A DNA stretch of 64,000 nucleotides from a virus. A program made the position numbers and the translations under genes. The notes under the pieces are model-generated. The model had not been told where the DNA came from and ran no database searches. It worked only from the letters and a program-made list of their open reading frames with translations. Positions 4,219 through 57,581 of this stretch are shown here, one piece after another. Numbering within the stretch: the first letter of the stretch is position 1; each line of letters opens with the position of its first letter. Location of the stretch: IMG/VR virus record IMGVR_UViG_3300032287_002972, positions 32,001-96,000 of that record; one strand, 5' to 3'.

Positions 4219-4917
4219 ATGAAACATTCTGAAGTATTAAGTAGATATGTAAATACTGGGTCAAAAATTCCAGAAGAACAATTTAATCAACTAACACCAT
4301 CATTGAAGAAGTCTTATATGAGGATGAGAAGTGTTGCAGGATACTCTGATTGGGAATTCGAATATTTAACTGATGATGAAAGAATAAAATTTATTGCAAA
4401 AAAAGGTAAAGAATTAGATGGTGATGAAATATATTTATTACTTGAATCTTCAAAAGATAAAGACCTTATTATAACAAAAATTATCAAGGTAAAAGATAGT
4501 ACAACATTACATTTCTTTGACATGAGTGTTATTGATAATGGTTTAGGTGCAGTAGAGTTTCTACTTCAATATTCAAATAATAAAGACCTTATTGCCACGA
4601 AAATTATTGAAAAAATAGGTTATGAATTAGATAATTATGAAATATATTTTTTACTTAAATATTCAGTTAATAAAGATGATATTGCGATAAAAATTATTAA
4701 TGAAAAAGATGGTGAGATAATTTTTAATGAATGTAAATATTTACTTTTTTATTCAAAAGATAAAGAATTAATAAAGAAATTATTATTACAAAATGGTGTT
4801 GATTATAAACATATAAATTATGAGATAACAAGGTATAATATAGATACCCCATTAATACCTGATGATTACCAATCAATGTTAAATGAGATAAGAAGGATTA
4901 AAGAAATGATGATATGA
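4219..4917 (+). CDS. MKHSEVL helical-repeat family protein, copy 1
   Basis: conserved N-terminus MKHSEVLSRYVNTG, internal ~35-aa repeats, C-terminus MLNEIRRIKEMMI. Confidence 0.85.
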   Translation: MKHSEVLSRYVNTGSKIPEEQFNQLTPSLKKSYMRMRSVAGYSDWEFEYLTDDERIKFIAKKGKELDGDEIYLLLESSKDKDLIITKIIKVKDSTTLHFFDMSVIDNGLGAVEFLLQYSNNKDLIATKIIEKIGYELDNYEIYFLLKYSVNKDDIAIKIINEKDGEIIFNECKYLLFYSKDKELIKKLLLQNGVDYKHINYEITRYNIDTPLIPDDYQSMLNEIRRIKEMMI

Positions 4918-5684
4918 AACATTCTGAAGTATTAAGTAGATACGTAAATACTGGACAACGAATACCAGAAGAACAATATGACCGTTTAACACCTGTGTTA
5001 AAGAAGTCTTATCTTAGAATGAGAGGTGTTGCGGGTGATTATTTTGAATGGGAATTTAAAGTAATAAGTGATAATGAAAGAATTAAATATATTGAAAAAT
5101 ACGGTGAAAAATTAGATATTAACGACTTACGGTATTTAATTAGTCTCTCAAGTAATAAAGACAATATTATAACAAAAATTATTGATGTAAGAGTTGAAAA
5201 ATTGGATTCTAACGATATATGGGGTTTACTTTATTCTTCAGATAATAAACATGATATTGTGACAAAAATTATTGATGTAAAAGGTAAAAAATTGGATTCA
5301 AGGGAGATAATACCATTAGTTGCTGTTTTAAAAGAAAATAAATATGATACCACACCAAGTATTTTAAAAATTATTGATGTAAAAGGTGATAATTTGGATG
5401 AACATGATACAAACATTTTACTTAAATATTCAGTTAATAAAGATGATATTGCAATAAAAATTATTAATATAAAGGGTGAAAAAATACATTATGATGAAAT
5501 TTATATTTTACTTGAATATTCAAAAGATAAAGAATTAATAAAGAAATTATTATTACAAAATGGTATTGATTATATATTAATAAATGATGTTATAACTAAT
5601 GATGATATAGATACACCATTAATACCAGATGATTACCAATCAATGTTAAATGAGATAAAAAGGATTAAAGAGATAATGAAATAA
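4914..5684 (+). CDS. MKHSEVL helical-repeat family protein, copy 2
   Basis: same termini as copy 1; ATGA overlap with the previous gene. Confidence 0.85.
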   Translation: MKHSEVLSRYVNTGQRIPEEQYDRLTPVLKKSYLRMRGVAGDYFEWEFKVISDNERIKYIEKYGEKLDINDLRYLISLSSNKDNIITKIIDVRVEKLDSNDIWGLLYSSDNKHDIVTKIIDVKGKKLDSREIIPLVAVLKENKYDTTPSILKIIDVKGDNLDEHDTNILLKYSVNKDDIAIKIINIKGEKIHYDEIYILLEYSKDKELIKKLLLQNGIDYILINDVITNDDIDTPLIPDDYQSMLNEIKRIKEIMK

Positions 5685-5690
5685 ATATTT

Positions 5691-6131
5691 TTAATAAAAA
5701 TATACCATAACATTACATTCATTAAATAATTTTATACTTTTTTCTTGAGATTCTTCCCATTTCTCTTTATTCTTTGTTGTACACACTTTTTTACACCAAA
5801 CGATTTGTATCCCCACATTTACAATGGCTCGAGCACAGTCCATACATGGTACTCCAGACGTTAAATAAATCGTTGAGTTTTTTAATGAAACACCAATTCT
5901 AGCTGCATTATAAATAGAATTTCTTTCTGCGTGTTCGATCCAAAAATACTTTTCAGGTCTCTCCTGTCTTTCTTGTTTTGAATCATCTAAACCTCTTGGA
6001 AAAGAATTATAACCTGTAGAAAGAATCTCATTATCTTTACCAACAATTACCGCACCTATTTGTGTCGATTCGTCTTTTGATTTTAATTTTATTTGTTCAG
6101 CAATATTTAAAAAATATTCAGTCCAGTTCAT
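5691..6131 (-). CDS. dCMP deaminase
   Basis: HAERN and PCMDC zinc-binding motifs, TGYN. Confidence 0.92.
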   Translation of the reverse strand: MNWTEYFLNIAEQIKLKSKDESTQIGAVIVGKDNEILSTGYNSFPRGLDDSKQERQERPEKYFWIEHAERNSIYNAARIGVSLKNSTIYLTSGVPCMDCARAIVNVGIQIVWCKKVCTTKNKEKWEESQEKSIKLFNECNVMVYFY

Positions 6132-6325
6132 GATAATTTTTGTTTGGAGATATAATGTACTTTGTTGTTTTGGTATAATCCCATATTTTGGGCAATACCT
6201 TTTTCTACTAATTTACCTATTTCAGTAAAACTTTTGGTGTCATTTAATGAAATTCCAATAATGAATTTTTCATTATCAACTTTTTCATAAGTTACTGGTT
6301 TAATAATTTTACTTTGGTCTTCCAT
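6128..6325 (-). CDS. small hypothetical protein
   Basis: ATGA overlap with the deaminase start. Confidence 0.5.
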   Translation of the reverse strand: MEDQSKIIKPVTYEKVDNEKFIIGISLNDTKSFTEIGKLVEKGIAQNMGLYQNNKVHYISKQKLS

Positions 6326-6412
6326 TTTTTTAAGACAAAAATAGTAATAAAAAAACTTATTAAAAGGGTTTTTTAATAAGTTTTTTTAAAAAATTTTATA
6401 TTTTTTTTAAAA

Positions 6413-7252: not shown

Positions 7253-7288
7253 TTTATTAAATTTATATTATATAAATATATGTTAAAT

Positions 7289-7319: not shown

Positions 7320-7336
7320 ATATATAGATAAAAAAA

Positions 7337-9058
7337 TTATCTTAATGTATCAATTCCAAATGTAGTCAAACCAAATACGTCAATTACACCATAGTAACGG
7401 TTATTAACCATTTTCTTTGCGTAACGAGTCATAATACCCTTAATTGGGGTAAAGTTAAATGGATTGTACATAGTTGGGGTCAACTGTAATGGTACGTAAG
7501 GTGCGTAAATATAACCTGCGTCCAATAATGATTTTCCTTTATGACCAATCATAATTTTACCAGCTGGTAAATATGGGTCACGGAATACTTGGTAACGACC
7601 TGCTAATGAACCAATTTTCTCAATACCCATGTTATATTGGTCTTGTTCAGGATGTGCGTTTGATACGTGGAAATATTCCAAATCATCAAATACCGCAGAT
7701 ACTTCTGAAGATACTACAATCCAGTTAGCACCACCACGAAGAGTTGTCTTATGGATTTGTGCAGAAATTTGGTTAATTTTAGTTACCAATGTTTGGTTCC
7801 AGTCTTTCTGAGTGTAACCTAAATATGGAGTGTTTCCTGTTGCACCATATCTCCATTCGTTATAATCCCACTTACTTCTCCATGCAGCACCCTTACGGAT
7901 ATCACGAAGAATTTCACGGTCAATTTCTGCTGCAATTTGTTCAGACAATAAAGCAGTTAATTCAGCCTCAGCGTCAATGTTATGGAATGCAGAAACGTCT
8001 TGTGCTAGTTCAGGGGACCAGCTTGCTCTTAACTTTCTTTCAGTAACTGATACAGTTACAGACTGAAGGTCAAAAGAAACTTCACCAATTACCTCTTCAA
8101 ATTCAAGAGATGCATATGTGTTATAAGTAATTTTAAAATCACTAATAAGTACAGGGTCAGTTACTGTAAGTGGAGAAAATCCAGCAGTTGTACTATAAGA
8201 TTCTAAATCTACACTTAAATAGATTTTACCTTCTTCATCACAAATATCTTGATATTTCTCTAAGTTAGTACCATTTTTAATTCCGTATTCAACAATACCT
8301 TTTCCGTATTTTTGAGTTACAACGTTAAAGTTTTTAACACCATTTGCGTTTGTACTAGTATTACCTGTAATTTCAACTGATAAAGATGCTAAAAATTCTT
8401 CAGTATCCATAACGTTACCATCAGCACCAATCATTTTACCTTGTCCGGCCTTAGTGAATCCACTAAGTACAAGAATTGTGCTTGAATGTGTTGTTCCGGT
8501 AGCTAACGATGATGTTGATTCTGATGGAACACCCGTATTGAATTGAACAAATGCATATGGGTTAGTTAAAGTGGTAGTTTTAGCTCCCCTTGAATAATCA
8601 AAAAGACCTTGGTCTGCGTCATCACTCTCTTCATAAAAACGGTCATAAAGACTTCTAGAAGAAGTGTAACCAGCAGCAGGGTCACCTTCGTTATTTGGAT
8701 AACCAAAAGGTGCTGATTTCGTGTCTTGAATTTTAGGTATAAAGAAAAATAATTTACCAATAGGTAAATTCATTGCTTGTACAGATACGATATCGTTAGC
8801 TAATAATTTAGAAAACACCCTACGAATAATAGGGAATACAACTGTTTCAAATGAACCACTTGCGTCAGAAACCGCAGCTTCGTTAATTAAATAACTTGCT
8901 TGGTTCTCATATAATTGTGCTACGTTATCTTTTTGATGTCCATCAAGTCCCTCTAGGAAACCTAGGTCATCCCATTTTTTAATGGTATCTTCTTTGATAA
9001 CACGTAGGTGTTTTAAACCAATGTTACCAACAATACCAGATTCTAATAATGCTCCCAT
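7337..9058 (-). CDS. major capsid protein (T4 gp23-like)
   Basis: RKLRASWSPELAQDVSAFHNIDAEAELT, AGYIYAPYVPL, GIMTRYA motifs. Confidence 0.97.
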   Translation of the reverse strand: MGALLESGIVGNIGLKHLRVIKEDTIKKWDDLGFLEGLDGHQKDNVAQLYENQASYLINEAAVSDASGSFETVVFPIIRRVFSKLLANDIVSVQAMNLPIGKLFFFIPKIQDTKSAPFGYPNNEGDPAAGYTSSRSLYDRFYEESDDADQGLFDYSRGAKTTTLTNPYAFVQFNTGVPSESTSSLATGTTHSSTILVLSGFTKAGQGKMIGADGNVMDTEEFLASLSVEITGNTSTNANGVKNFNVVTQKYGKGIVEYGIKNGTNLEKYQDICDEEGKIYLSVDLESYSTTAGFSPLTVTDPVLISDFKITYNTYASLEFEEVIGEVSFDLQSVTVSVTERKLRASWSPELAQDVSAFHNIDAEAELTALLSEQIAAEIDREILRDIRKGAAWRSKWDYNEWRYGATGNTPYLGYTQKDWNQTLVTKINQISAQIHKTTLRGGANWIVVSSEVSAVFDDLEYFHVSNAHPEQDQYNMGIEKIGSLAGRYQVFRDPYLPAGKIMIGHKGKSLLDAGYIYAPYVPLQLTPTMYNPFNFTPIKGIMTRYAKKMVNNRYYGVIDVFGLTTFGIDTLR

Positions 9059-9085
9059 TTTTTAATTTTTTTTAATTTTAATTTT

Positions 9086-10387
9086 TTATTTTAATTTTGA
9101 CATTAAGTCTTTCATTCTCCTAAACTGAGGATTTTCATAAGCTTTTGACTCAGAAAGTACTTGAGTTGAAGAAGAAGTACTAGGACTTGTTCTTAATTTT
9201 TCAACTACAGATTCAGATATTGGTTTTTTATTATCTAAATCATTTTTTAGGTTATTATAAAGATTTTTCGATTCTCTCAATGTTGATACTGAATCAAATT
9301 TCTTTAAAATATCAATTTTTTCTTTTTTAGTTGTGGAATGTTCAGTAAATAAACGAGTTGCATAAGCTAAATTTGCATTAAATACTGCAACTTCATTTAG
9401 TTTATCTTTAAAAAGGATTAATGCTTTTTTATATTCAGCATTTTGTTTTTTTAATTTACTAACTTCTTCATTGATAGCACCTGACGCGAATAATTTTTTA
9501 CTTTTTATTCCTGTTCTATTTGCACCACCTTTGTCTCCGTGTATATTCCATTTAGTTCTTGCTGCTTCATCCACATCACCTTCTGGCGACATCATGTCTT
9601 CGTTATCATCAAGATCTATTTCGTATACTACTTCGTCATCGTTATTAAAATCATCATCCTCATCTATTGGTATATCCATCTCATCATATGAATCGTCATC
9701 TTCGTCTACTGACATATCGTAATCACCGTATGAATCATCATCTTCATCTACTGATAGATCGTATTCACCATATGAATCGTCATCTTCGTCCATATATTCA
9801 TCCATTTCTGATTCGTCTAATTTGATGATATACTCACTATCACCATCTTTAAATTCAATCTGATTGTCGTCTTTTTTCACAATAAACCCATCTTCAGGTT
9901 TCATTGCTTTAAAAATTCTTAAAACTTCTGAAGGACTTGCGTCTGTGGCGTTAAAAACTTCATCATTTGTGTCAGAGTCTCCCATACCCATATCTGGATC
10001 TTCATCATCCACGTCTAGTTCTTCATCATCCATGTCTGGTTCTTCATCATCCATATCGGATTCTTCATCATCCATATCGGATTCTTCATCATCCATATCG
10101 GATTCTTCATCATCCATGTCTGGTTCTTCATCATCCATGTCTGGTTCTTCATCATCCATGTCTTGTTCATCAAGGTCATCATCACCATATGATTCTGGTA
10201 CATCTTTTTTACCTTTCTTAGGAGATTGTTTTAAAACATCCTCCTCTTCTTCCAAAGATTCTTTCAACAAATCATTTAGTTCTTGTTTCATTGTAGAAGC
10301 AAGTATACCTTTTGCGTTTGTTTTTACGGCCTCTTCAAGTGTTTGTATTTGAAGCAATGCTTGTTCTAAAATTGATTTTTCGTTCAT
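9086..10387 (-). CDS. prohead core scaffolding protein (gp22-like)
   Basis: lies between protease and capsid genes; highly acidic with a coiled-coil C-terminal region. Confidence 0.8.
   Translation of the reverse strand: MNEKSILEQALLQIQTLEEAVKTNAKGILASTMKQELNDLLKESLEEEEDVLKQSPKKGKKDVPESYGDDDLDEQDMDDEEPDMDDEEPDMDDEESDMDDEESDMDDEESDMDDEEPDMDDEELDVDDEDPDMGMGDSDTNDEVFNATDASPSEVLRIFKAMKPEDGFIVKKDDNQIEFKDGDSEYIIKLDESEMDEYMDEDDDSYGEYDLSVDEDDDSYGDYDMSVDEDDDSYDEMDIPIDEDDDFNNDDEVVYEIDLDDNEDMMSPEGDVDEAARTKWNIHGDKGGANRTGIKSKKLFASGAINEEVSKLKKQNAEYKKALILFKDKLNEVAVFNANLAYATRLFTEHSTTKKEKIDILKKFDSVSTLRESKNLYNNLKNDLDNKKPISESVVEKLRTSPSTSSSTQVLSESKAYENPQFRRMKDLMSKLK
9992..10159 (-). repeat. 8 x 21-nt coding tandem repeat, (M/V)DDE(E/D)(P/S/L)D
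   Basis: ttcttcatcatccat(g/a)tc units read directly from the sequence. Confidence 0.95.
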
Positions 10388-10466: not shown

Positions 10467-11150
10467 TTATTTATATAAAAAATTGTCTAACTTATTCATT
10501 AAGTTTTTCATTTTATCCACGGACTGTGGTTTTTCCTCAGTTGATTCTTCATAATTATTTCTATCATCCAAATTTTTAAAAATATAAGCACCTGGTGTTG
10601 ATGGAGAAGATACTAAATCAAAACAAACTAATTCAAAATCGTCTTGAACAATATTTTGTCCTTTAATATTTTTTAGAGAACCAACTCCTCTTGATGATAT
10701 ACCTAAAGTTGCACCATTCATTAAAAGCATCGCTGCTTGGTCACCTTTAGTACTAACTATCCCCATTTTTCTCCACCCAGGGGATGTAAATAATTTTATT
10801 TTTCCCATTAAAATTTTCCCATCCCACCATGTTTCAGTTATTGAATGAGATACTCTATCTAAATCGATTAATGAACTTGATGGGTGATTTAATTCATTTA
10901 ACGCACCGCCTTTTCTTATTATGTTTTGATATTTTTCATTTTCTCTTTTTAAAAGAGTTTCTGGATATATCCTACCATTTTTATTCGGTGTGTCAAATTT
11001 TTGTAGTACTGCGTGTAATACCACATCTTCAAAAAAATTACTATCTTTCATTTCAGATATAATTTTTTTATTATCATTTGGTGATATTTGACCCGCATCG
11101 TATTCAATTAAAAGTTTTCTACCGTCCTTGAATGTAAATTCTTTTTCCAT
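10467..11150 (-). CDS. prohead core protease (T4 gp21-like)
   Basis: NKNGRIYP, ELNHP, GISSRGVGS, FDLVSSPS motifs. Confidence 0.95.
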   Translation of the reverse strand: MEKEFTFKDGRKLLIEYDAGQISPNDNKKIISEMKDSNFFEDVVLHAVLQKFDTPNKNGRIYPETLLKRENEKYQNIIRKGGALNELNHPSSSLIDLDRVSHSITETWWDGKILMGKIKLFTSPGWRKMGIVSTKGDQAAMLLMNGATLGISSRGVGSLKNIKGQNIVQDDFELVCFDLVSSPSTPGAYIFKNLDDRNNYEESTEEKPQSVDKMKNLMNKLDNFLYK

Positions 11151-11783: not shown

Positions 11784-12536
11784 TTAAAACAATCCGTTTT
11801 TTAATTCTACTAATTTATAGTAAGAATGTCTTGATACTTTTGTTTCATTAACTTGTTTCTTAACATCACTAAGTTTTTCCACTAACGAATTATCATTTGA
11901 TTCATTTAAGATATTTTCTATTTTATTATTTAATTCAAATTTTAAATAACTTGTTTCATTAATTAATGTTTCTTCATCCATTGACATGATTTCCTTAAAT
12001 GTCTTTTTCTGTTCTTCATTTAAAAAGTCTCCGTATTTTATATTAAAATTATTAACCAGTACTTTATTTAATAATGAAAAATTCTCAATTTGTACATCTG
12101 AAGGATTATTTTTAATAATTTCTTTTTCTTTCATTAGAAAGTTAATAAAATTTTCTTTTGATTTAAATTTATCATTAATATTGTTTATAGTATGTTCTTC
12201 AGATAAAATATCTAACCATTCATATAGTTCATTTTTTTCAACAACTACGTCCTTTAAAATTTTATTAATTTTTTTACATTCAGAATTTATTGTTTTCATT
12301 TTTTGAATAAAATGGGGTTCCAAGGATTCAACAAACAATCTAGCATTATCTTTTTGTGGAATATACGTTGTTTCCATGTCTTCATAGAATTTATACACTT
12401 CAACCAAATCTTTATTTGATTTTAATTTTTTAATTAAATCTTTCAATTCTTTCTTATTACCAGAATTATAAGATTCTGTTAATTTAATTAATAGTTTTGT
12501 TTTTAATTCACCAAATTTTATCATATTATTCTTCAT
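11784..12536 (-). CDS. head-module hypothetical protein (possible prohead core component)
   Basis: helical, charged, directly downstream of the portal gene. Confidence 0.5.
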   Translation of the reverse strand: MKNNMIKFGELKTKLLIKLTESYNSGNKKELKDLIKKLKSNKDLVEVYKFYEDMETTYIPQKDNARLFVESLEPHFIQKMKTINSECKKINKILKDVVVEKNELYEWLDILSEEHTINNINDKFKSKENFINFLMKEKEIIKNNPSDVQIENFSLLNKVLVNNFNIKYGDFLNEEQKKTFKEIMSMDEETLINETSYLKFELNNKIENILNESNDNSLVEKLSDVKKQVNETKVSRHSYYKLVELKNGLF

Positions 12537-14343
12537 TTAATATATTTTTTAATTTATTTTCTATTTCATAAATATTCTTTTGTGCTTTATTTATGTCAAA
12601 TAATTTACTTAAATCATCACCATCACCTAACATATTTAATAAATTTCTTTTTTTAGTTGATTCACTTAAAGGTGATGAAGCATCGGATGGTGGTGGTGTT
12701 GACGATGCTGCACCTCCTCCCATATCCATACCACCCATATCACCACCAGCTTCACCTGTTTGTGATTTTTCTAATTTTTCTCTTTCCTCTTCTGGTATAC
12801 CATATTTAGAATCTACATCATCAAACACGCCAGATCTTTTAATGATATTTTGAGTATTAGTTAATTCAAACCCCATTGCTCTTTCGAGTCTTTGTTGTTG
12901 TAAATCTAATAATACTTCACTATCACTCATACCAAGAATATTTTTCTTTGCCCATGTGTGTGAAACCGGCAAAATACCCACTTGTGAGTTATCCGATGTT
13001 GCGTCTTTATATAGTAATATTTTTTCTTTCCATTGTTCTATTCTTAATAAATCAGATTGCGCCGATGGGTTAGTTAATGATAAACTAAAATTATCTAACT
13101 CATCTTCCATTCCAAGAAGATAAAGATGCATTAATGCTATCTTATTTAATTCCTGAACCAATGATTTTTGAATTCTATTTATGGTTCTTGCAAAACGTAT
13201 ATCCATTAAGGCTAATTGTTTTCCATCACCAACAATCTCTTCAAAACCAATAAATGCTTTAGGAATACGAAGTGCCGCTAACATTTTTTTCTGTATATAT
13301 TCAATATCAGCAATTTCACCTAAATTTTGTGCACCTGATAATGTTTCAATTGGACTGGTTTGTGCCGGATCCCTAATTGGAATAAAATAATCTTGGTCTA
13401 CCGCCATTTGATTATATCTCATATCCACTTGACCATTTCTTGAATCAACAATTTGGTCTCTTTTAAATTTATTTGCAACACGTTGTACATATGATTCAAT
13501 ATCTTTATCATCCATATTTCCAACAAATACTTTAAAAACTCTTCTTTCAGGTGCTCTGGTTGTTCTATAAATTAACATAGCATCTTCAGCTAAAAGTAAT
13601 TGTTTCCAAATCCTTCTAATTTTATCCAACATACTGGTACCATAGGGTAATTTTCTATCGTCACCTAGTAATCTAAAATGTGCAATTTCCCATGCTTGAA
13701 ATTCTAATTCTTTATTAGACCATTGAAATCTTAATTCCCTTGTTGGTATTTTATTATCTCTCTGATTCGGTGATTTAGATTCTCTTCCTTCAATTCTTTG
13801 TATTTCAATATTAGGTAATTGTTGACATCCAATAATTCCCTTTTCAGGGTCTATTTTTAGATAAATAAAATTATCCCCATATTTACAAACACCTCTAGCC
13901 CACATTTGTAAATTTGTGTTAATATCTAATCTATTAGTGAATAAATCTTCTAATATTGTTTTCACTCTTGAAGATTCTGAAAATATAGTTAAAATTTCAC
14001 CTTTTTCAGAAAGTGTTGTGGATTCTTCAGCATATATATCTAAAGCTGCTGATATCTCTGGAGTAAACTCCATACTTTCATAATCATAATAAGCCGATAA
14101 TCTATTGGGTTCATAATATACAGATTGATTATATAATGATTGTTCTAATTTTGTCCATTTATCTGCAATATATTGACTTTGTTGTGATTGTAGTAATTTA
14201 TTTTCGTACTCTTCTTTACTATTTGTTTTAAGTATTTCATCTTTTGAAAAATTAAATGACGGAGAATCCTCTGGTTTTAGTTTACCAGAAAATCCAAACA
14301 TTTTAGTTAATCTTTGAAATACTGTTGAATTATTATCTGCCAT
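12526..14343 (-). CDS. portal protein (T4 gp20-like)
   Basis: LAEDAMLIYRTTRAPERRVFKVFVGNM, DYFIP, ALRIPK motifs. Confidence 0.96.
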   Translation of the reverse strand: MADNNSTVFQRLTKMFGFSGKLKPEDSPSFNFSKDEILKTNSKEEYENKLLQSQQSQYIADKWTKLEQSLYNQSVYYEPNRLSAYYDYESMEFTPEISAALDIYAEESTTLSEKGEILTIFSESSRVKTILEDLFTNRLDINTNLQMWARGVCKYGDNFIYLKIDPEKGIIGCQQLPNIEIQRIEGRESKSPNQRDNKIPTRELRFQWSNKELEFQAWEIAHFRLLGDDRKLPYGTSMLDKIRRIWKQLLLAEDAMLIYRTTRAPERRVFKVFVGNMDDKDIESYVQRVANKFKRDQIVDSRNGQVDMRYNQMAVDQDYFIPIRDPAQTSPIETLSGAQNLGEIADIEYIQKKMLAALRIPKAFIGFEEIVGDGKQLALMDIRFARTINRIQKSLVQELNKIALMHLYLLGMEDELDNFSLSLTNPSAQSDLLRIEQWKEKILLYKDATSDNSQVGILPVSHTWAKKNILGMSDSEVLLDLQQQRLERAMGFELTNTQNIIKRSGVFDDVDSKYGIPEEEREKLEKSQTGEAGGDMGGMDMGGGAASSTPPPSDASSPLSESTKKRNLLNMLGDGDDLSKLFDINKAQKNIYEIENKLKNILNEE

Positions 14344-45425: not shown

Positions 45426-45967
45426 ATTTCTTCATCTTGTTGTACTTCCTGATGTTGTTGTTCAAGTCTTTTAACCATACCTTTTGTTAGTGAATTATAT
45501 ATTTCTTCACCAAACCTTTCCATGATATCATTTTCTTCTCTTAAATCAATAAATTCACCACCTGCTAAAAATCCAAGGACAGTTCCTAAATTGATTGTTT
45601 TCCATGATTGTTGGGTAGCCTTTGATTTTGCACTATCTCTTTCAGCGACTCTAACTCGTAAAGTTTTAAGTGTTTTACGATATAATATCAAATCAATTAC
45701 TCTTACAACATTATTATTTTGTTGTAAATTCATTTGCGCATCTGTTTTAGGTCTTTCACTTGGTACATAAGATTTAAGATGACTTTTAAATGTCAGATGA
45801 CGAACTTCTCCATTTTTTAAAACGTACGCAACACTTACTATTTGATTTCTATCTATTGCGTTTCTCAATTTATCTAATGACCTATACATGTCATATGTGA
45901 ATGGTGATTCTTTTAAGTTGTTTTTTATTAACTTTTTTAATTGTGATTCTGTAATTATAATTTTCAT
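45422..45967 (-). CDS. ITESQL-leader protein with an SH3/WYL-like barrel
   Basis: IVSVAYVLKNGEVRH...VIDL...WKTINL. Confidence 0.5.
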   Translation of the reverse strand: MKIIITESQLKKLIKNNLKESPFTYDMYRSLDKLRNAIDRNQIVSVAYVLKNGEVRHLTFKSHLKSYVPSERPKTDAQMNLQQNNNVVRVIDLILYRKTLKTLRVRVAERDSAKSKATQQSWKTINLGTVLGFLAGGEFIDLREENDIMERFGEEIYNSLTKGMVKRLEQQHQEVQQDEEI

Positions 45968-46902: not shown

Positions 46903-47786
46903 CTCATTATTTCTTTTATTCTCCTTATTTCATTTAACATTTCTTGATAATTATCTGGTATTAATGGTGTAAATTGGGTATTTATTTCATTTGAAATATC
47001 AGATATTACTTTATTTATTAATTTATAATCAACACCATTTTGTAATAATAATTTTTTTATTAATTCTTTTTTTTCTGGGTAAAAAGTAAACTGCATAGAA
47101 TTAAATAATGCAAATATATCATCACCATTTAATTCTTTACCTTTTGTATAAATAATTTTTTCGGACATTTCATAACGTTCATTAGATGATAAATATATAA
47201 TTAAATTTTCGATATCTAGACTATTTAATTGTATACCTTTTGTCTCAATAATTTTTCTTGCAATATCAGCTTTATTAACTGAAAACAACATCATAAGTTT
47301 TAATTTTTCACTATCTAATTTTTCACCAAATGTTTCAATAATTTTTATCGCAATATTATCTATATTAAAATATTTTTTAGTCATTAAACTTCTTACCTCA
47401 GAATCATCTAATTTTTCACCTTTTACTTCAATAATTTTTGTTGCGATATCATCTTTATTCTCTGAATAACCAAGTAAATTATATATGTTACCAAATACTA
47501 ATTTTTCACCAAATGTTTCAATAATTTTTGTTGCAATAAGATCTATATCATTTGAATATTTAAATAAATCTTGAATATCGTAATGACTTAATTTTACGCC
47601 TTTTATTTCAATATAGTTAATTCTTTGATTATCACTTATAAATTCATATTCCCAATCTTTAAAACCAGCAACACTTCTTATTCTAATATAAGACTTTTTT
47701 AATACTGGTGTTAAACGATCATATTGTTCTTTTGATAGGTGTTTTCCATTATTTACATACCTACTTAATACTTCTGAATGTTTCAT
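46899..47786 (-). CDS. MKHSEVL helical-repeat family protein, copy 4
   Basis: shared termini and internal repeats. Confidence 0.85.
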   Translation of the reverse strand: MKHSEVLSRYVNNGKHLSKEQYDRLTPVLKKSYIRIRSVAGFKDWEYEFISDNQRINYIEIKGVKLSHYDIQDLFKYSNDIDLIATKIIETFGEKLVFGNIYNLLGYSENKDDIATKIIEVKGEKLDDSEVRSLMTKKYFNIDNIAIKIIETFGEKLDSEKLKLMMLFSVNKADIARKIIETKGIQLNSLDIENLIIYLSSNERYEMSEKIIYTKGKELNGDDIFALFNSMQFTFYPEKKELIKKLLLQNGVDYKLINKVISDISNEINTQFTPLIPDNYQEMLNEIRRIKEIMR

Positions 47787-48739
47787 ATCATTATTTCTTT
47801 AATCCTTCTTATCTCATTTAACATTGATTGGTAATCATCTGGTATTAATGGAATATTTAAATGAAAATTTTTGTTATACCCATTTATAACATCATTTATT
47901 AATATATAATCAACATTATTTTGTAATAATGTTTTCTTTATTAATTCTTTATTTTCTGAACGTTTAAGTAAAATAAAGATTTCCTTTACATCTAATTTTT
48001 GACCTTTTGTTTCTATAATTTTTATTGCAATCTTATCTTTATCCTTTGATTCATTAATTAGGGTTCTTACATCCCTTATATCTAATTTATCACCTTTTGT
48101 TTCAATAATTTTTATTGTAATGTTATCATTTACGTTATCTGAAAAATTAAGTAAACTTTCTATGTCACTAGAGATTAATTTTTCACCTTTTGTTTCAATA
48201 ATTTTTATTGAAATATGGTCATTTACGTTTTCAAAATCTTTTAATATGTATTCTATACTAATGTAATCTAATTTATCACCTTTTGTTTCAATAATTTTTG
48301 TTGCAATATCATCTTTATTAACTGAATATTTTAATAGTAATACTATAATGTAATTATTTAAAGAATCACTTTTTGTTTGAATAATTTTTGTTATAATACC
48401 ATCTTTATTCGTTGAATGATTAATTAAACTATTAATAATTAAATTATTTAAATTATCACCCATCCCGTCAATAATTCTCATTATAATATTATTTTTATTA
48501 TCTGAATATTTAATTAAATTATCAATAAAATAACTGTTTAAATAGATACCTTCTCTCTCAATATAATTAATTCTTTGATTATCATTTATATATTTTAATT
48601 CCCAATGAGAATAATCACCCACAACAGATCTGATTCTAATATAAGATTTCTTTAATGATGGAGATAAACTATCATATTGTTTTTCTGTTATTTCTACGCC
48701 AGTATTTACATATCTACTTAATACTTCTGAATGTTTCAT
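47783..48739 (-). CDS. MKHSEVL helical-repeat family protein, copy 5
   Basis: shared termini and internal repeats. Confidence 0.85.
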   Translation of the reverse strand: MKHSEVLSRYVNTGVEITEKQYDSLSPSLKKSYIRIRSVVGDYSHWELKYINDNQRINYIEREGIYLNSYFIDNLIKYSDNKNNIIMRIIDGMGDNLNNLIINSLINHSTNKDGIITKIIQTKSDSLNNYIIVLLLKYSVNKDDIATKIIETKGDKLDYISIEYILKDFENVNDHISIKIIETKGEKLISSDIESLLNFSDNVNDNITIKIIETKGDKLDIRDVRTLINESKDKDKIAIKIIETKGQKLDVKEIFILLKRSENKELIKKTLLQNNVDYILINDVINGYNKNFHLNIPLIPDDYQSMLNEIRRIKEIMI

Positions 48740-49590
48740 ATCATTATTTGTTTTATTCTCCTTATTTCGTTTAACATTGATTGGTAATTATCTGGTATTA
48801 ATGAGATATCTAAATTATTACGTGTTATAACTTTGTTTATTAACATATAATCAACACCATTTTGTAATAATGTTTTCTTTATTAATTCTTTATCTTTTGA
48901 ATATAAAAGTAAATAATATATGTCATCACTATCCAAATTTTCACCTACTTTTTGAATAATTTTTACGGCGTCATTATCTTTATTTTTTGAATTTAAAAGT
49001 AAAATAGATATCATATCATAGTTTAATTTTATACCTTCTGTTTCAATAATTTTTGTTGATATGTCTTTATTATCTGAAAATTCAAATATTGTATTTATGT
49101 TACTTATTTCCAAGTATTTACCTTTTGCATGAATAATTTTTATTGCTATCTCATCTTTATTATCTGAATTTTTAAGTAGATATTTTATTTCACTATTTCT
49201 TAAATTTTCACCTAATGTTTCGATAATTTTTATTATAACATTATCTTTATTTTTTGAATCTTTAAATTGTGGTAATATTATTTCAAGTATGATATAATCA
49301 TCCAAATTTATACCGAATGTTTCAATAATTTTTGTTGCAATAATAACTTTATTTGGTGAATAGTCAAATATATCTATTATTTGATTATTTGTTAATTCCC
49401 AATTTTTTATTTCAATAAATTTAAGTTTTTCATCTTCACTTAACAGTTTAAATTCCCATTTTTTGTAACCTGAAATACCTCTCATTCTCATATAAGATTT
49501 TTTCAATGATGGTGATAAACGGTCATATTGGTTTTCTGGGATTAGTGAACCTGTATTTACATATCTATTTAATACTTCTGAATGTTTCAT
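48736..49590 (-). CDS. MKHSEVL helical-repeat family protein, copy 6
   Basis: shared termini and internal repeats. Confidence 0.85.
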   Translation of the reverse strand: MKHSEVLNRYVNTGSLIPENQYDRLSPSLKKSYMRMRGISGYKKWEFKLLSEDEKLKFIEIKNWELTNNQIIDIFDYSPNKVIIATKIIETFGINLDDYIILEIILPQFKDSKNKDNVIIKIIETLGENLRNSEIKYLLKNSDNKDEIAIKIIHAKGKYLEISNINTIFEFSDNKDISTKIIETEGIKLNYDMISILLLNSKNKDNDAVKIIQKVGENLDSDDIYYLLLYSKDKELIKKTLLQNGVDYMLINKVITRNNLDISLIPDNYQSMLNEIRRIKQIMI

Positions 49591-50375
49591 ATCATTATTT
49601 CTTTAATCCTTCTTATTTCTTGTAACATTGATTGGTAATTATCAGGTATTAATTCAATATGACTTACACCATCTTTTTCAAAATTATACTGGTTTATTAC
49701 TTTATTTATTAATTCATAATCAATACCTTTTTGTAATAATAATTTCTTTATTAATTCTTTATTTTCCGGATAAATAAATAAGTATTTTATGTTATGTTTA
49801 TTAAAATATTGTTTATCAATTAATTGAATAATTTTTATAGCCATATCATCTGCATTTTGTGAATGTCTAATAAAAAAAATTATTTTTTCTTCGTCCATAT
49901 CTACCATTTTTTTATTATTTTCAATAATTTTAGATATAAGATTTTCTTTATTAATTGAATTAGGAACATAATTAATTAGAGTACTAATCATATCATCATC
50001 TATCTCATCCAACGTTTCAATAATCCTTATTGAGATTTCATATTTATTATTTGAATTATTAAGTAATAAACTAGCTTCATTATAAGTTAAAGTCTTACCT
50101 TTTTTTTCAAATATTTTAGATATCATATCATCTTTATTATCTGAATATTGAAGTGTGTATTTTATTTCATAGAATTCTAAATCCTCACCTTTATTTTCGA
50201 TAAAATTAATTCTTTGATTATCATTTATTACTTGAAATTCCCAACTTTCATATCCTGCAACACCTCTCGTTCTAAGATAGGATTTTTTTAACACAGGTGT
50301 TAACCTGTCATATTGTTCTTTTGGTAATCGTTCTCCGGTATTTACATATCTACTTAATACTTCTGAATGTTTCAT
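49587..50375 (-). CDS. MKHSEVL helical-repeat family protein, copy 7
   Basis: shared termini and internal repeats. Confidence 0.85.
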   Translation of the reverse strand: MKHSEVLSRYVNTGERLPKEQYDRLTPVLKKSYLRTRGVAGYESWEFQVINDNQRINFIENKGEDLEFYEIKYTLQYSDNKDDMISKIFEKKGKTLTYNEASLLLNNSNNKYEISIRIIETLDEIDDDMISTLINYVPNSINKENLISKIIENNKKMVDMDEEKIIFFIRHSQNADDMAIKIIQLIDKQYFNKHNIKYLFIYPENKELIKKLLLQKGIDYELINKVINQYNFEKDGVSHIELIPDNYQSMLQEIRRIKEIMI

Positions 50376-50828: not shown

Positions 50829-51404
50829 ATGAAAAGAACGGTTATTATTAATGAACAACAATTTACAAAACTAATTAAAAAAATTTTAAACGAACAAAAT
50901 AATATGGATAATAACACATTTCCGAAAAATCACAAAGAATTGATTAACATGATGCCTGATTCATTAAAAATTCTTTTTTATACTCAATGGCAAGCAAAAC
51001 AAAACCCGAAGTGGCACATGGAAGGTAATACGTTAAAACATATTATTATTGTTTTAAAAAGAGCGTTTGAACGTTATCCAAACAATCCTGACATCATTCT
51101 TGCGGCGTTATTTCATGACTTGGGAAAGTTAGACACTTACGCAATAAATCCAAAAACAGGACAACCAACGGCATACGGTCACGAAGTTAAATCAGGTGAA
51201 TATTTGGAAAAATATAAAGATTGGGTTAATTCTTTTGATGGAGTAAATTTTGATAAAATCAAATATTTGGTATTAAACCATATGGTTATTAAACCATCAA
51301 CATGGGATAATATGAGGCAACAAAAAAAGGACCCTATTGAACAGAATCCTTCTTTTGAAGATTTAAAAAATTTTACCAACCATTTAGATGGTGGTGGTTA
51401 TTAA
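50829..51404 (+). CDS. HD-domain phosphohydrolase with an INE-type leader
   Basis: WHMEGNTLKH, AALFHDLGK, GHE, NHM. Confidence 0.85.
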   Translation: MKRTVIINEQQFTKLIKKILNEQNNMDNNTFPKNHKELINMMPDSLKILFYTQWQAKQNPKWHMEGNTLKHIIIVLKRAFERYPNNPDIILAALFHDLGKLDTYAINPKTGQPTAYGHEVKSGEYLEKYKDWVNSFDGVNFDKIKYLVLNHMVIKPSTWDNMRQQKKDPIEQNPSFEDLKNFTNHLDGGGY

Positions 51405-51964: not shown

Positions 51965-52411
51965 TTATGATATATTTTCAAAATATAGTGGTTTTCTTGA
52001 AACCACAATTGTTGCCCCTATTTCATTCACATCATCAAGTAGTATTTCACTACCATCACCATATACTTTATATAAATAATCACCATACTTATATTTTGAT
52101 GACTGAAAAGATGATGACATTAATGGTTCATCTGATACAAAGGTAAAACCGAATCCCTCACTCTCAAACACCTCGTTCATCCCATCAATGTTTTCATCTT
52201 CAAGATTCTCATCATAATCAGATATAATGTCCATATAGGCATTTCTAATAACATCAGAATAATCTGATGAATCTAAAATATCCCCTTTATAATAACCATT
52301 TGACATGTCATTCCTTGATGAGTGATAACCTAAAAAGTTTTTATTATCTACATTCTCAATTATAACACCCATTATTTGTTTAATTCTATTAATATTTTCT
52401 TGTAGTTTCAT
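51965..52411 (-). CDS. ADP-ribosyltransferase-like protein (ENINRIKQIM leader)
   Basis: GYHSS...GFTFVSDE...YGDYLYKV. Confidence 0.45.
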   Translation of the reverse strand: MKLQENINRIKQIMGVIIENVDNKNFLGYHSSRNDMSNGYYKGDILDSSDYSDVIRNAYMDIISDYDENLEDENIDGMNEVFESEGFGFTFVSDEPLMSSSFQSSKYKYGDYLYKVYGDGSEILLDDVNEIGATIVVSRKPLYFENIS

Positions 52412-53940
52412 ATTTTTTTATTTAAATTTACAAATAATTCAATGTATCTTTTTTTATGAACGGGACTTAAAAATTTAAATTCATATCCTTGAAGGTCATA
52501 TTTTTGTATTTGAGATTTTATTGAATCTTTTGGAAAATCATTCTTAACGAATTTTTCTAAAACAGATATTTTTCTTTCAAAATACGTTTCTTTTTGAGTA
52601 GATGAAGCGTGTTTAAGTTCTTCTTGGGTCATTGTGTGTTTATTTTTTATGAGTGTATCGATTGCAAATGTCTTTTGCTCGGGAGTTAACATTTCAAATT
52701 CCCAATCAAGTAAAGAATGTCCTTTATTTATTTTAATATTAAAATGTTCTTCTCTTTGTTCAGGAGTTGCCTCTTTTAGTTGGTCTGTCCATATTAATAT
52801 ACCATTTTTTATTTTATAATCAATTATTTCTTTTTTTACTTCTTTTGGTGAGTTATTAAATATGTATTCGTCTTCATACATATTATAGACAGTATACTTA
52901 TTATTTTTTATAAGTAATGAAATATATCTTTTCTTTTGACTTTGTGATGCTAATACATAATATAATAAATCCTGAAGAATATTTCCATTTATTAACATTT
53001 TTTCAATAAGTTGTCTTCTATCCATTATAGGAAGTGATATAAATTCTGGATTTGTTAGTTCTTCACCTTTTTCTATTTTTTTTAGTGCCCTGTTTCTAAT
53101 AGATTTTTTACCCTCAACCGTATCTCTATAACTATCATCATATAAACATCCTAACCTTCTATATGTTCCCGACAATTTTTGTGTTTTTTCCATGTAATCG
53201 TCTATAGTATCTGTAAATTTTTCAGAATCTGGTATATTGCCATATGTTTTTTGGTCTGGATATAAAATAACATCTTTTTCATTTTCTACATTTAGAAATG
53301 GTTTTATTAAAACTCTCCCTAATGGGTTTTCTATATTTGTATCATTTACTTTTGTTAAATAACATATTATAGTTCCCTCTTTCATGTCTCTTTCCACGTA
53401 ATGTTGGTTCCCCCCCATAATAAGGTTCATACAACTACTCCAAGTAGGTAATCTACCAGTCGACATTCCCGCAATATCGTACTTGGCACTGGAAAATATT
53501 ATAACTAAATCATCCTCTTTATCTATTATACCTCTACTCTTTATTGATGCATATCTATCTATTAATTCTTTTGCTTCAGGTTCTTTTTTTGACACAATAT
53601 TCAAGGCTCTATTTAACGCTATTTCCTTATTATTTTTCATATTTATCGCAAGATTATTTCGATAATCTTTTATGATGAATTGGTATGGTTCTAATATGTC
53701 TTTAATCTCATTTTCTGTAGAATCATTCGTATATGGAAACGATATTCTCCATCCTCGTTTATCTATTTGACGTGCGTTAGGTAATGATTTTAAATTCGTG
53801 AATACTTGTTTAATCCTTTCCTCAGCTTCTGGACTTCTTTCTATTTCAAGATATTTTTTTGCTACGGAGTATGCGACCGCTTCGTCAACAGTACTTTTAA
53901 TAATCTTTTTATATTGTGATTCTGTAATTATTATTTTCAT
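52408..53940 (-). CDS. ITESQ-leader protein with a PcfJ/GNAT-like core and C-terminal helical repeats
   Basis: GMSTG..WSSCM...GRVLIK...YG; xTPEQ(K/R) repeats. Confidence 0.5.
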   Translation of the reverse strand: MKIIITESQYKKIIKSTVDEAVAYSVAKKYLEIERSPEAEERIKQVFTNLKSLPNARQIDKRGWRISFPYTNDSTENEIKDILEPYQFIIKDYRNNLAINMKNNKEIALNRALNIVSKKEPEAKELIDRYASIKSRGIIDKEDDLVIIFSSAKYDIAGMSTGRLPTWSSCMNLIMGGNQHYVERDMKEGTIICYLTKVNDTNIENPLGRVLIKPFLNVENEKDVILYPDQKTYGNIPDSEKFTDTIDDYMEKTQKLSGTYRRLGCLYDDSYRDTVEGKKSIRNRALKKIEKGEELTNPEFISLPIMDRRQLIEKMLINGNILQDLLYYVLASQSQKKRYISLLIKNNKYTVYNMYEDEYIFNNSPKEVKKEIIDYKIKNGILIWTDQLKEATPEQREEHFNIKINKGHSLLDWEFEMLTPEQKTFAIDTLIKNKHTMTQEELKHASSTQKETYFERKISVLEKFVKNDFPKDSIKSQIQKYDLQGYEFKFLSPVHKKRYIELFVNLNKKI

Positions 53941-53950
53941 AATTTTTTAT

Positions 53951-54814
53951 TTATAGTTGTTCCAATTGTTTAATCTGTTTTGGCCAAAGAAAGATATGTG
54001 ATTGTCTCCTTAATAACCCTAAAAAATTATCTATATCTCTTCTATATTTTTTACTTAAATATTCTATTTTATCTAATGTTAGATCTTCATTAGGTTTAAA
54101 TAATTTATTACGAAGATTTTCGGGTACTTCTTCAGATTTTAACTCCTTACCATATTTTTTTAAAAATTCTCTTCTTGTATATCTTATCCAAGGACCATCA
54201 GTATTTCGTCTAAAAAATCGACCTTCATGAAACCATACCGTTTTTATTTCATTCGGATCCAAATCACCAATAAATAATGCTTGATGTTCAGGGTCATTAA
54301 ATATACTATTACCTAATTCGGGTCTGTCTGATTTTGATACTCTATTTTTACCATATTTACCTTCAGGGTCATTCTCACCATATTCTTTTCTTTTCCTTAA
54401 TATTTCTTGTTGTCTTTCATCATCATTTTTAAATGATTTTGTCATTTGACCCGGAACAAAATAACTATCTTGACCCGCCCATACAGGTGATTCTAAATTG
54501 GTTACTTTAGTGTCAAATTCAATAATGATTCCAGATGATGCAAATCTTCGTGACACTATATTAAATTCTGTGGACACAAATAATCCTTTTGGGTTATTAC
54601 CACTTTCGTATGAATATATTCTTCGAGCCCTAACACCACCAGATAAACCATGTGTTAAAGAATATAATGCATCTGCTGTACTTGATGAATTAAATCCATG
54701 GTATACTCTTATTTTTTCAGAATCTTTTATTGGTTCAAAATCTTTTAAGTATGACCCAACAACTCTAGTCTCTAAAAGTCTTTTTAGTTGTGATTCTGTA
54801 ATTATTACTTTCAT
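53951..54814 (-). CDS. ADP-ribosyltransferase-like protein (ITESQL leader)
   Basis: RVYHG...GL...GLFVST...GIIIEF...EHQALFIG. Confidence 0.55.
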   Translation of the reverse strand: MKVIITESQLKRLLETRVVGSYLKDFEPIKDSEKIRVYHGFNSSSTADALYSLTHGLSGGVRARRIYSYESGNNPKGLFVSTEFNIVSRRFASSGIIIEFDTKVTNLESPVWAGQDSYFVPGQMTKSFKNDDERQQEILRKRKEYGENDPEGKYGKNRVSKSDRPELGNSIFNDPEHQALFIGDLDPNEIKTVWFHEGRFFRRNTDGPWIRYTRREFLKKYGKELKSEEVPENLRNKLFKPNEDLTLDKIEYLSKKYRRDIDNFLGLLRRQSHIFLWPKQIKQLEQL

Positions 54815-54827
54815 GATTTTTTTATAT

Positions 54828-54854
54828 ATTATAAATATCCCGGCGCCCGAGAAC
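54828..54854 (-). promoter_or_regulatory. GC-extended late-promoter element, copy 1
   Basis: attataaatatcccggcgcccgagaac; 26/27 identical to 55941-55967. Confidence 0.6.
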
Positions 54855-54875
54855 TATTTTTTATTAGGAATGTCT

Positions 54876-55373
54876 TTAATTACGTTCTTTAAAATAGTTG
54901 TTTATTATGTGTCCGCCTTTAAAAAAATTGACCTTATCAAATGGTTTATCCCATTCGGTTTCATTGTCAATTAGTTGTTGTCTAATATCATAACCAATAA
55001 TACCCGCATAACATGAAATGTCGTCAATCTCTAGTGGAGTTACCTCAATTAAAGTGTTATTATCAGAGTCATACGCCCACCAATGTTCAATTGGGTAATA
55101 TGATTCAGTAAATGCATAACCACCCACAGGAAATATATTTTTACCTTCGTCTATTCCATCCATAACATAGTTAAACGAATTTCTTTCACACTTGTTTTTT
55201 TTACCGTATATATAATTTATACGTTTAACATCACCAACTAAAGAAAACACATAATTTGGGTTAGTCTCAGCAAACGTTAAAAAGTTTTCACCTAATCTAT
55301 CATTAATACCTTTTATATGGAATTTAATCAATTCGTCATTATTTATTTCATTTAAAATGGTAATTAATTTCAT
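54876..55373 (-). CDS. transglutaminase/papain-like Cys-His-acid protein
   Basis: CERNS...GGYA...IEHWW...IEVTP; MKLITILNE leader. Confidence 0.5.
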   Translation of the reverse strand: MKLITILNEINNDELIKFHIKGINDRLGENFLTFAETNPNYVFSLVGDVKRINYIYGKKNKCERNSFNYVMDGIDEGKNIFPVGGYAFTESYYPIEHWWAYDSDNNTLIEVTPLEIDDISCYAGIIGYDIRQQLIDNETEWDKPFDKVNFFKGGHIINNYFKERN

Positions 55374-55384
55374 TATAATATTTT

Positions 55385-55927
55385 TTAATTAAATTGTTCT
55401 AAATACTTAACGAGTCTTTCCCCATATAATATATCATATGGTTCTTGTTCTTCCAATGAAAAATAATCACCGTTTTCAATAAAATTAGGTAAAGATTGAA
55501 CATCTATATAATTTACTGTATTGACTTTTTTATTTTTCATATCATAAACATAACCATTAATTCTTCTAAAAATTGTTTCATTCTTTTTAATAATTACCAA
55601 TATTGCCTCATTAATGTTTGGTGTACCACCAAAATTAGAATAACTCCAAGTATCAGGGTTATCACTAAAAAATAAAACTCCTTCAACTCTATCTTCGTTT
55701 TGGTTATAATATTCATCATCCATATACATTTGGTAACTTTCAGTATTTTTAACGGTGTCACCAAAATCAGGTAATAAACCAAATCTTTTTATCGAATCCA
55801 AATTTTTAATATTTGAACCATGATATAAAAAAGATTTATTTGGTTTTGGTACTTTAACTATTTTTTCTTCATTTAAAATATTGTTAACAACCCTTTTAAA
55901 TTGTGATTCTGTGATTATTATTTTCAT
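55385..55927 (-). CDS. ADP-ribosyltransferase-like protein (ITESQF leader)
   Basis: LYHGSNIKNLDSIKRFGLLP...VLFFSD. Confidence 0.65.
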   Translation of the reverse strand: MKIIITESQFKRVVNNILNEEKIVKVPKPNKSFLYHGSNIKNLDSIKRFGLLPDFGDTVKNTESYQMYMDDEYYNQNEDRVEGVLFFSDNPDTWSYSNFGGTPNINEAILVIIKKNETIFRRINGYVYDMKNKKVNTVNYIDVQSLPNFIENGDYFSLEEQEPYDILYGERLVKYLEQFN

Positions 55928-55940
55928 ATTTTTTTTATAA

Positions 55941-55967
55941 ATTATAAATATCCCGGCACCCGAGAAC
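55941..55967 (-). promoter_or_regulatory. GC-extended late-promoter element, copy 2
   Basis: attataaatatcccggcacccgagaac. Confidence 0.6.
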
Positions 55968-55971
55968 CGTT

Positions 55972-56823
55972 TTAACTTAATAATTTCTCCACGGTGTTCA
56001 CCAATTCAGGATTACTTCCGTCTTGTTTTGCTTCATGATATTTTTGGGAAATGAATAGTTCAATATTTGGAACAAGAAGGTCATTAAGTTTTTCTTGTGG
56101 TATCAACATTATTTCTCTCCCATCATCAAAAATAACACCATCAAAACCTGAATGTAAAATTAGGTTATTAAAAGAATCCTCCAAACCAAAAACAGAGTTA
56201 AGTTTATTTAAGTTATTAGTTTCAATAACTCTTAATTCTAATTGTTCCATAAATCTATCAAATCCTAATTTAGGTTCTTCTTTTAATGATTTTTTTAATG
56301 TGTTAACAATATAATCGGTATTTTTATCAAAAACGGAATATCTTTCTTTTAGGTTATTTATTTCATTTGTAATTTCATCATATTCGTTATTGTTACGTAC
56401 ATTAATCAACAAATCCTCTAGTTTATGGATTCTTGAACTTATTTCAGATGGTAATTCTAACATGTAAATTACTTGATTAATGCTCATATTTCCATTTAAT
56501 AAGTCTAAAGAATTTGCGTTCAAATATGTTGACTTTTGTCCGTAATCATAATTTTTAAATGAACTACTAAAATAATATCCTTTACCATATCTTCCTCTCA
56601 TTGAACCTTTTATTTTAGATGAGTCAAAATTGGAAATGACTTGGTCTCCGTTATGTGCAATTAGATTAGTTAAATTTCTTAATGTTACCTCAGTTTGTAT
56701 ATCTTTTAATTTCGGTTTTAATGATTCAGATGTGGATTCTACTGATTCTAAAGATGGGTTAGTTGTTGATTCATTTAATCCCATTATATTTTTAATCCGT
56801 GATATTTGTTCGTTTAGTTCCAT
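55972..56823 (-). CDS. ART-PolyVal-like ADP-ribosyltransferase (MELNEQISRIKNIM leader)
   Basis: H...FDSSK...YGKGYYFS...YG...YLN...GFDGVI...E. Confidence 0.6.
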   Translation of the reverse strand: MELNEQISRIKNIMGLNESTTNPSLESVESTSESLKPKLKDIQTEVTLRNLTNLIAHNGDQVISNFDSSKIKGSMRGRYGKGYYFSSSFKNYDYGQKSTYLNANSLDLLNGNMSINQVIYMLELPSEISSRIHKLEDLLINVRNNNEYDEITNEINNLKERYSVFDKNTDYIVNTLKKSLKEEPKLGFDRFMEQLELRVIETNNLNKLNSVFGLEDSFNNLILHSGFDGVIFDDGREIMLIPQEKLNDLLVPNIELFISQKYHEAKQDGSNPELVNTVEKLLS

Positions 56824-56825
56824 GA

Positions 56826-57581
56826 TTAACAATTTATATTAATATCGAGATTATTTAATCTACTTATCATTTCGTTGGTTTTCTTTTCTGTATCTTTTGA
56901 TAATATACCACCAACTTTATTTGTAATAAAAACTTCCGAGATTTTAATTACGTTTTTTAATGGTATTGGTTCAAAAACTCTAATATACTCATCTTGTAAC
57001 ATATACAAATCCAAGTCTTTTGGTGATATTGCTAATATAACACCTTCACTACTGTTCGGAAGATAATTTCTTGCGGTACTTGGAGTTTGTCCCAAATTGA
57101 TACCTTCAGTTTCCAAGATAGCACCCCTCATATCGCTGTCTATAAAACCTTGTTTTTTTATTCTTTCCCAATCTTTTAACGAAACACCTCTAAATAATAT
57201 TTTATCACCAATTGCTCGATAAATTGGAATTTTACTATCTTTGTCCCATGATCCTGTTGTTGGCAATTCACCAACCTTTTCTCCCATTTTGTATGTGTAG
57301 GAATCACTATAATTTAAATCTTTTAAAAAAATGGTCATTTGGTTTTTGACATCATCCTTATCTGATAAAAAATAACCGTCCTCAAAATACCCACGAATTC
57401 TACGTTGTTCTTGTTTAAGTTCATACCATTTATCATCATAATTTTCATTATCATAATCACTAATCACCTTTTCCAATGTCTGTTGAATACATTTTAATTT
57501 ATTATCTATATTATTTGATGAGACTTGTTCATTTAACCCCATTATATTTTTAATCCGTGATATTTGTTCGTTTAGTTCCAT
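56826..57581 (-). CDS. ADP-ribosyltransferase-like protein (start revised to MELNEQ)
   Basis: LFRGVS...IKKQGFI...ARNY...GVILAI...DEY...PIP; the ORF-track start overlaps the next gene. Confidence 0.6.
   Translation of the reverse strand: MELNEQISRIKNIMGLNEQVSSNNIDNKLKCIQQTLEKVISDYDNENYDDKWYELKQEQRRIRGYFEDGYFLSDKDDVKNQMTIFLKDLNYSDSYTYKMGEKVGELPTTGSWDKDSKIPIYRAIGDKILFRGVSLKDWERIKKQGFIDSDMRGAILETEGINLGQTPSTARNYLPNSSEGVILAISPKDLDLYMLQDEYIRVFEPIPLKNVIKISEVFITNKVGGILSKDTEKKTNEMISRLNNLDININC

Follow-up and report, generated by a model that had tools for sequence, protein, structure and literature searches.

Proteins encoded in a 64,000-nucleotide stretch of DNA from an uncultured T4-related phage (the window; bases 32001-96000 of the 167,990-base virus record IMGVR_UViG_3300032287_002972, whose whole genome is designated G000) carry at their N- or C-terminus a short basic amphipathic helix that, judged from sequence comparison, probably acts as a removable prohead-targeting peptide like the capsid targeting sequence (CTS) of phage T4. 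Coordinates below are window positions unless another sequence is named. A pattern describing the helix matched 16 times in the 277 open reading frames (ORFs) of the genome, and all 16 matches lay within 20 residues of a protein terminus with none internal. Shuffling the ORFs 300 times gave a mean of 0.49 terminal matches (maximum 4) and 1.58 internal matches. Because the pattern was drawn up after inspection of the data, other genomes provided a fairer test, and two that had not been used for the pattern contained 5 terminal matches compared to 0.43 in shuffles (G001) and 9 compared to 0.77 (G004). Twelve of the 16 matches were C-terminal, including those of the scaffold and the prohead protease.

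A preliminary description of this DNA had stated that seven MKHSEVL repeat proteins end in the motif, and all seven do. Two are encoded on the plus strand, at 4219-4917 (tag core 4888-4911, right after L-N-E) and 4914-5684 (tag core 5655-5678), and five on the minus strand, at 45964-46902 (45970-45993), 46899-47786 (46905-46928), 47783-48739 (47789-47812), 48736-49590 (48742-48765) and 49587-50375 (49593-49616). These proteins align over their full length with 52-61% identity to the first and are tandem copies with ATGA overlaps, so their tags represent one acquisition and are counted once. The N-terminal form opens three minus-strand genes as described, 51965-52411 (148 residues, tag core 52370-52393), 55972-56823 (283 residues, 56782-56805) and 56826-57581 (251 residues, 57540-57563), whose bodies are mutually unrelated. 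The segments quoted from the scaffold (9086-10387) and the protease (10467-11150) are also present, but the protease segment (helix core 10497-10520) was the weakest match, at rank 67 and 651 of 47,425 scored windows. The ExIxRIK spacing given for the motif holds for the N-terminal form; in the seven C-terminal copies E immediately precedes I. Four further tagged genes lie beyond the window at G000 18465, 19908, 144873 and 166087; in G001 and G004 the counterparts of 18465 and 19908 keep the C-terminal helix and the counterpart of 166087 keeps the N-terminal helix.

What the preliminary description overlooked is a gp21-type cut site bounding the tag and the existence of at least five interchangeable leader classes. 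T4 gp21 cleaves after L/I-X-E and takes off short N-terminal targeting peptides, and Alt is trimmed at both ends (PMC9026906, PMC5694885). An L/I/V-x-E was found within 10 residues after the N-terminal helix in 37 of 40 distinct bodies in the window's clade and in 70 of 71 in the sister clade, with about 6 in control windows. The same motif preceded the C-terminal helix in 16 of 19 cases versus 0-1 in controls, in a set that still includes several paralogues. The site after the helix played no part in tag selection, and both site counts are of sequence only. As the cut motif is on the cargo side of the tag, cleavage there by gp21 would take the tag off, and being so bounded the tag is probably removed. 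By analogy with T4, we infer that this cleavage would be carried out by the gp21-type protease.

Tagged genes also shared an upstream motif with the head genes. TATTTAT was present directly upstream of the scaffold, protease, portal and terminase genes and of the gene at G000 199, read as a tail sheath from its sequence. An upstream walk through contiguous genes reached TATTTAT for 31 of 32 leader-bearing genes, 13 of 135 genes of the early/variable region and 61 of the remaining 104. This distribution is consistent with TATTTAT being a late promoter, in which case the tagged proteins would be made late with the head proteins.

In 90%-identity clusters of all three N-tagged proteins the leader had been exchanged while the body was kept, with the two parts joined at the L/I-x-E site. 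In P0001 and P0097, which match the 57581 body at 232 and 229 of 233 residues, the leader is that of the upstream neighbour gene. An LTESEK-class leader was present on the 56823 body in 3 of 8 cluster members, and the 52411 body had a third leader class, ending I-L-N-E, in 7 of 14. The gene at 57595-58083 (minus strand) has an LTESEK-class leader, and in related strains this leader precedes the 57581 or 56823 body. DNA comparison located a 12-nucleotide microhomology coding L-N-E-Q at 57525-57536 (minus strand), common with 57991-58002, and this was the crossover of the leader swap in two independent contigs (L493 and L494). A recent DNA copying event links two of the three N-terminal tags, which are identical at 53 of 54 nucleotides and end at the L-N-E codons. 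Among more remote homologues of the 57581 body the amphipathic leaders vary widely, and an L-N-E consensus immediately precedes the body. With this variety of leaders on the same bodies, the helix belongs to a set of interchangeable leader classes that numbers at least five.

The tag resembles the tail of the scaffold, which hardly varies within the window's clade. In all 43 clade tails the scaffold helix core (9101-9124, minus strand) has R at position 0 and M at +5; an L-x-E site is located 7 residues upstream of the core. Profiles built from N-terminal cargo tags of other contigs ranked the scaffold tail 1st of the 47,425 windows with the model from the sister (LAG) clade and 21st with the own-clade model, where 13 windows scoring above the scaffold tail reached at least 14 and were mostly tags. 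Among contigs picked by the window-clade tag the scaffold tail ended K/R-D-L-M in 11 of 11, and among those picked by the L-A-G tag it ended L-A-G or L-A-F in 13 of 13, although a few loci in these counts matched the DNA pattern without a tag in the ORF scan. Cargo and scaffold change together between the clades at +2 (K versus Q) and +5 (M versus A); the search patterns had set some of the columns in advance, whereas +5 of window-clade cargo was free and was M in 95%. The likeness amounts to near identity in the LAG clade and is partial in the window's clade. Flavobacterium phage immuto has two LAG-type tags, on genes near 25061 and 111675 of NC_055915.1 that also have an I-T-E site. Other gp21 homologues also have helix-like tails. 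We found no tags like their own scaffold tails in T4, P-HM2, GAP32 or the parts of SCTP-2 and LR756511 that were covered, indicating that the feature is not general to T4-type heads. Single scaffold tails scored against protein ends by BLOSUM62 were too weak to separate genomes. A complex prediction of the coat protein with the N-terminal tag scored 0.00 against a mark of 0.32 and carries no weight either way. Modelling of the coat protein from 18 sequences gave a poor result (predicted local distance difference test, pLDDT, 49).

Several points weigh against the helix being a prohead-targeting peptide related to the scaffold tail. Virion proteome, cleavage or binding data were sought for cultured relatives and none were found. 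In a quick coat-protein tree the tag types fell in two sister clades, so the 24/24 agreement between tag and scaffold is one contrast only. The window-clade tag differs from the scaffold tail at three of four hydrophobic positions (I, I, I/M versus F, M, L). Tagged leaders are partly related by copying and their counts are therefore not independent events, and the list of other leader-bearing genes in the TATTTAT count was chosen by eye.

The proposal of the preliminary description, that cargo proteins mimic the docking helix of the scaffold, stands as far as a portable terminal signal is concerned, one used at both ends, on late-type genes and of the same motif family as the scaffold tail; three of the leader classes are unlike that tail. 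Taken literally, with the tag binding the scaffold tail's own pocket on the coat protein, it has a real but somewhat less than even chance of being correct. The clade-matched changes at +2 and +5 agree with such a pocket, as do the coat N-terminus, which also differs between the two clades, and the scaffolds of L169, L185 and L195, which have drifted to the cargo consensus R-I-K-E-M-M. SaPI CpmB offers a precedent, as it copies the 80alpha scaffold tail and occupies the same coat site (PMC5644958). Set against this, the leaders found in place of the tag on the same bodies are unlike the scaffold tail, which was ranked 1195, 2917 and 359 by the LTESEK, ITESQ and KLxxI leader-class profiles, the T4 tag associates with the core (PMC5694885) and the phylogenetic contrast is a single one. 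The tag could instead bind the scaffold or core rather than the shell, as the T4 CTS does, by bundling with scaffold tails or with another core protein. In T4 the core is the binding partner of the targeting peptides (PMC5694885, PMC9026906), the internal proteins copurify with gp22 and the CTS brings them to the core (PMC9026906), and several interchangeable amphipathic leaders would suit a permissive helical partner. Alone, however, core binding leaves unexplained why the tag tracks the terminal residues of the scaffold between clades, and the T4 CTS is absent from the other core proteins of T4 (PMC9958956), in which no gp22-tail-like tags were found; we regard it as possible but rather unlikely. 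Protein placement in T4-type proheads is still termed unresolved (PMC9958956).

In an improbable alternative, the protease, a chaperone or a degradation system would dock on the helix, which would then label substrates and not cargo. A cut site always flanks the helix, the protease has a related tail and T4 propeptides can also recruit chaperonins (PMC10052503), but most scaffold L/I-x-E sites are without such a helix alongside, and gp21 acts inside the prohead (PMC9958956), so its substrates would have to be incorporated anyway. That the helix has no protein function, and either arose as a by-product when genes were duplicated and captured or acts as DNA, for example as a ribosome site that overlaps the following start, we consider very improbable. 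The seven tandem paralogues with their ATGA overlaps and the two recently copied N-terminal tags could be read this way. However, synonymous codon differences among the tag copies point to selection at the protein level, the C-terminal helix is kept on unrelated conserved genes in G001 and G004, and every one of the 16 matches is terminal. The tag also persists at 4914-5684, where the next gene is convergent and the tag therefore cannot be a start signal for that gene.

If the helix is a removable targeting peptide, the tagged proteins would be made late together with the head proteins, as the shared upstream motif suggests, and the basic amphipathic helix at either end would hold them in the assembling prohead, probably through a contact of the scaffold-tail kind. 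The gp21 protease would then cut the cargo-side L/I-x-E and free the cargo inside the head, as in T4, and the KptA-like ADP-ribosyltransferase (ART) described below and similar enzymes may be delivered with the DNA in the manner of T4 Alt. Recombination at the short shared DNA of the cut site exchanges leaders and bodies of neighbour genes, as shown for three genes, and keeps the cargo set variable. The boldest version, in which a helix copied from the coat-binding part of the scaffold is present at either terminus of the cargo and leads to one docking site shared with the scaffold, and the cut site is both the point of release and the DNA crossover point that reshuffles tags and cargo, is put forward tentatively, with the balance tilted slightly against it. 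If true, T4-type heads would have a loading code that is natural, cleavable and specific to the clade. The motif common to the scaffold tail and cargo provides a specific binding hypothesis that is testable in the cultured phage immuto. The tags would also let candidate virion-delivered proteins be read from the genomes of a large, mostly unannotated group of uncultured phages, and a tag usable at either end would widen CTS-style packaging of foreign proteins.

The helix resembles the T4 CTS, found on IPI-IPIII and Alt and removed by gp21, in being a short terminal peptide on unrelated non-structural proteins (PMC9026906, PMC5694885, PMC9958956) and in being bounded by the L/I-X-E site of a gp21 homologue. 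As with T4 Alt, which is cut at both ends, the cargo here includes an ART-fold protein. A T4 CTS with an altered cut-site glutamate still packages a reporter (PMC9026906). Unlike the strictly N-terminal CTS, the same motif is used here at either protein end and resembles the phage's own scaffold tail, while T4 shows no tags like the gp22 tail. A further difference, read from genome sequences, is that recombination at the cut site exchanges leaders of five or more classes. Searches of an incomplete literature library turned up no paper describing this motif. The helix also recalls SaPI1 CpmB and the tail of the phage 80alpha scaffold (RIIK helix-and-hook), where a second protein bears a copy of the scaffold's basic, amphipathic C-terminal helix; CpmB, however, is a competing scaffold of a parasite, alters capsid size and has the helix at the C-terminus only (PMC5644958). 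In the present case the bearers are accessory proteins of the phage itself, either terminus is used, a cut site is present and the likeness is one of sequence. Propeptides of SPN3US and phiKZ head proteins are mostly 111-254 residues, unlike the tag, and the portion of the source available describes no scaffold-like common motif in them (PMC10052503). Encapsulin cargo-loading peptides are similar in being about 10 residues long, portable, N- or C-terminal and present on several cargoes of an HK97-fold shell (PMC7355545). The analogy drawn earlier with these peptides agrees with a use at either terminus but with neither the cleavage nor the link to the scaffold, and the shell here is a phage gp23 with portal, terminase and protease, not an encapsulin. 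Encapsulins are not known to have a scaffold or a maturation protease.

The three N-tagged proteins had been described as ART-like, and an ART-type fold was supported for the product of 56826-57581 only. The true start of this gene is 57581 and not the upstream ATG at 57782. Its predicted model had a pLDDT of 87.5, with low confidence over the first 21 residues, and residues 119-215 aligned to KptA (9ld3_A) with Z 9.5 and a root-mean-square deviation of 2.2 over 89 residues. The top Foldseek rows were Tpt1/KptA and CC0527, with a best E of 0.004, which is above E 0.001. The model thus supports an ART-superfamily fold of the KptA/Tpt1 type. The 51965-52411 and 55972-56823 proteins are ART-like by motif only and gave no significant Pfam, PHROG, NCBIfam or PDB match. 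Head packaging of ARTs is frequent in myophages (PMC9503650). A further N-tagged protein of 477 residues (G000 166087-167520, L490) had weak endolysin, peptidoglycan-binding and glucosaminidase matches and is a candidate head-packaged cell-wall enzyme. In L493 an internal deletion (1029-1171) leaves the 56823 gene as a tag with a short out-of-frame tail, so the cargo cluster also loses cargo by deletion. In P0016 and P0032, two homologues of the 57581 body, the leader contains M-G-R-L-D and resembles the gp21 C-terminal helix of many relatives; these are the only two examples found.

Family and fold searches gave no lead for the MKHSEVL proteins, and no homologue was present in five related genomes. 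The last 25 residues of the protein at 3152-4204 resemble the start of the MKHSEVL proteins downstream, as if a longer gene had given rise to the family through its C-terminal part. In place of two MKHSEVL genes of the window, a close relative carries six in tandem (L001:14496-18759), showing that the array expands and moves.

The T4-type head module is on the minus strand and consists of the terminase large subunit (14400-16172, PF03237), a T4-like portal (12526-14343, PF07230), the gp21/S77 prohead protease (PF03420, E 1.1e-21), an acidic protein in the gp22 position and the gp23-like major capsid protein (7337-9058, Pfam PF07068, E 7.7e-72). The 433-residue scaffold with 12 L/I-x-E sites was assigned from its position, composition and conservation, and a family search with it returned no match. 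In the coat protein E60 is invariant in an alignment of 60 homologues and is a candidate maturation cut site, the first 30 residues are nearly invariant within the clade, and an insertion of about 150 residues (160-315) is beta-rich by a low-confidence model. The closest annotated phages are remote, with about 31% coat-protein identity, and comprise Flavobacterium phage immuto, Rhodothermus RM378, Microcystis phage Mel-JY01 and an uncultured 484-kb phage. The terminase (1027 residues) and portal (1017 residues) of L001:2501-8697 each extend about 430 residues beyond the window versions, which suggests inteins or similar inserts.

A second and commoner leader class, I-I-T-E-S-Q with an amphipathic helix and a second L/I-x-E, was seen on ten unrelated proteins, and ITESQ-class genes in the window (1910-58946) are those at 1910, 6413, 20821, 32295, 45422, 50829, 52408, 53951, 55385 and 58128. 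The last (58128-58946, minus strand) heads the transcription unit, with TATTTAT upstream, and the one at 50829-51404 encodes an HD-domain protein with weak CCA-nucleotidyltransferase matches. Four neighbour genes on the minus strand at 52408-55927, three with ITESQ leaders (52408, 53951 and 55385) and one with a KLxxIL leader (54876), belong to the same candidate cargo cluster as the N-tagged genes. Further classes are LTESEK at 31055 and 57595, KLxxIL at 54876 and KRLAKL at 51633, and the KRLAKL leader is also found on several bodies in L493 and L495. In the 484-kb phage (L083, LR756508.1 151982-193517) about 20 small genes near the head module open with another shared leader of the K-L-R-x-I-I/V-R/K-E-E type, and there is also one L-A-G tag. 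Elsewhere in the genome, G000 123237-138885 holds a long array of Gln/Val-rich mini-genes of 60-100 residues each.

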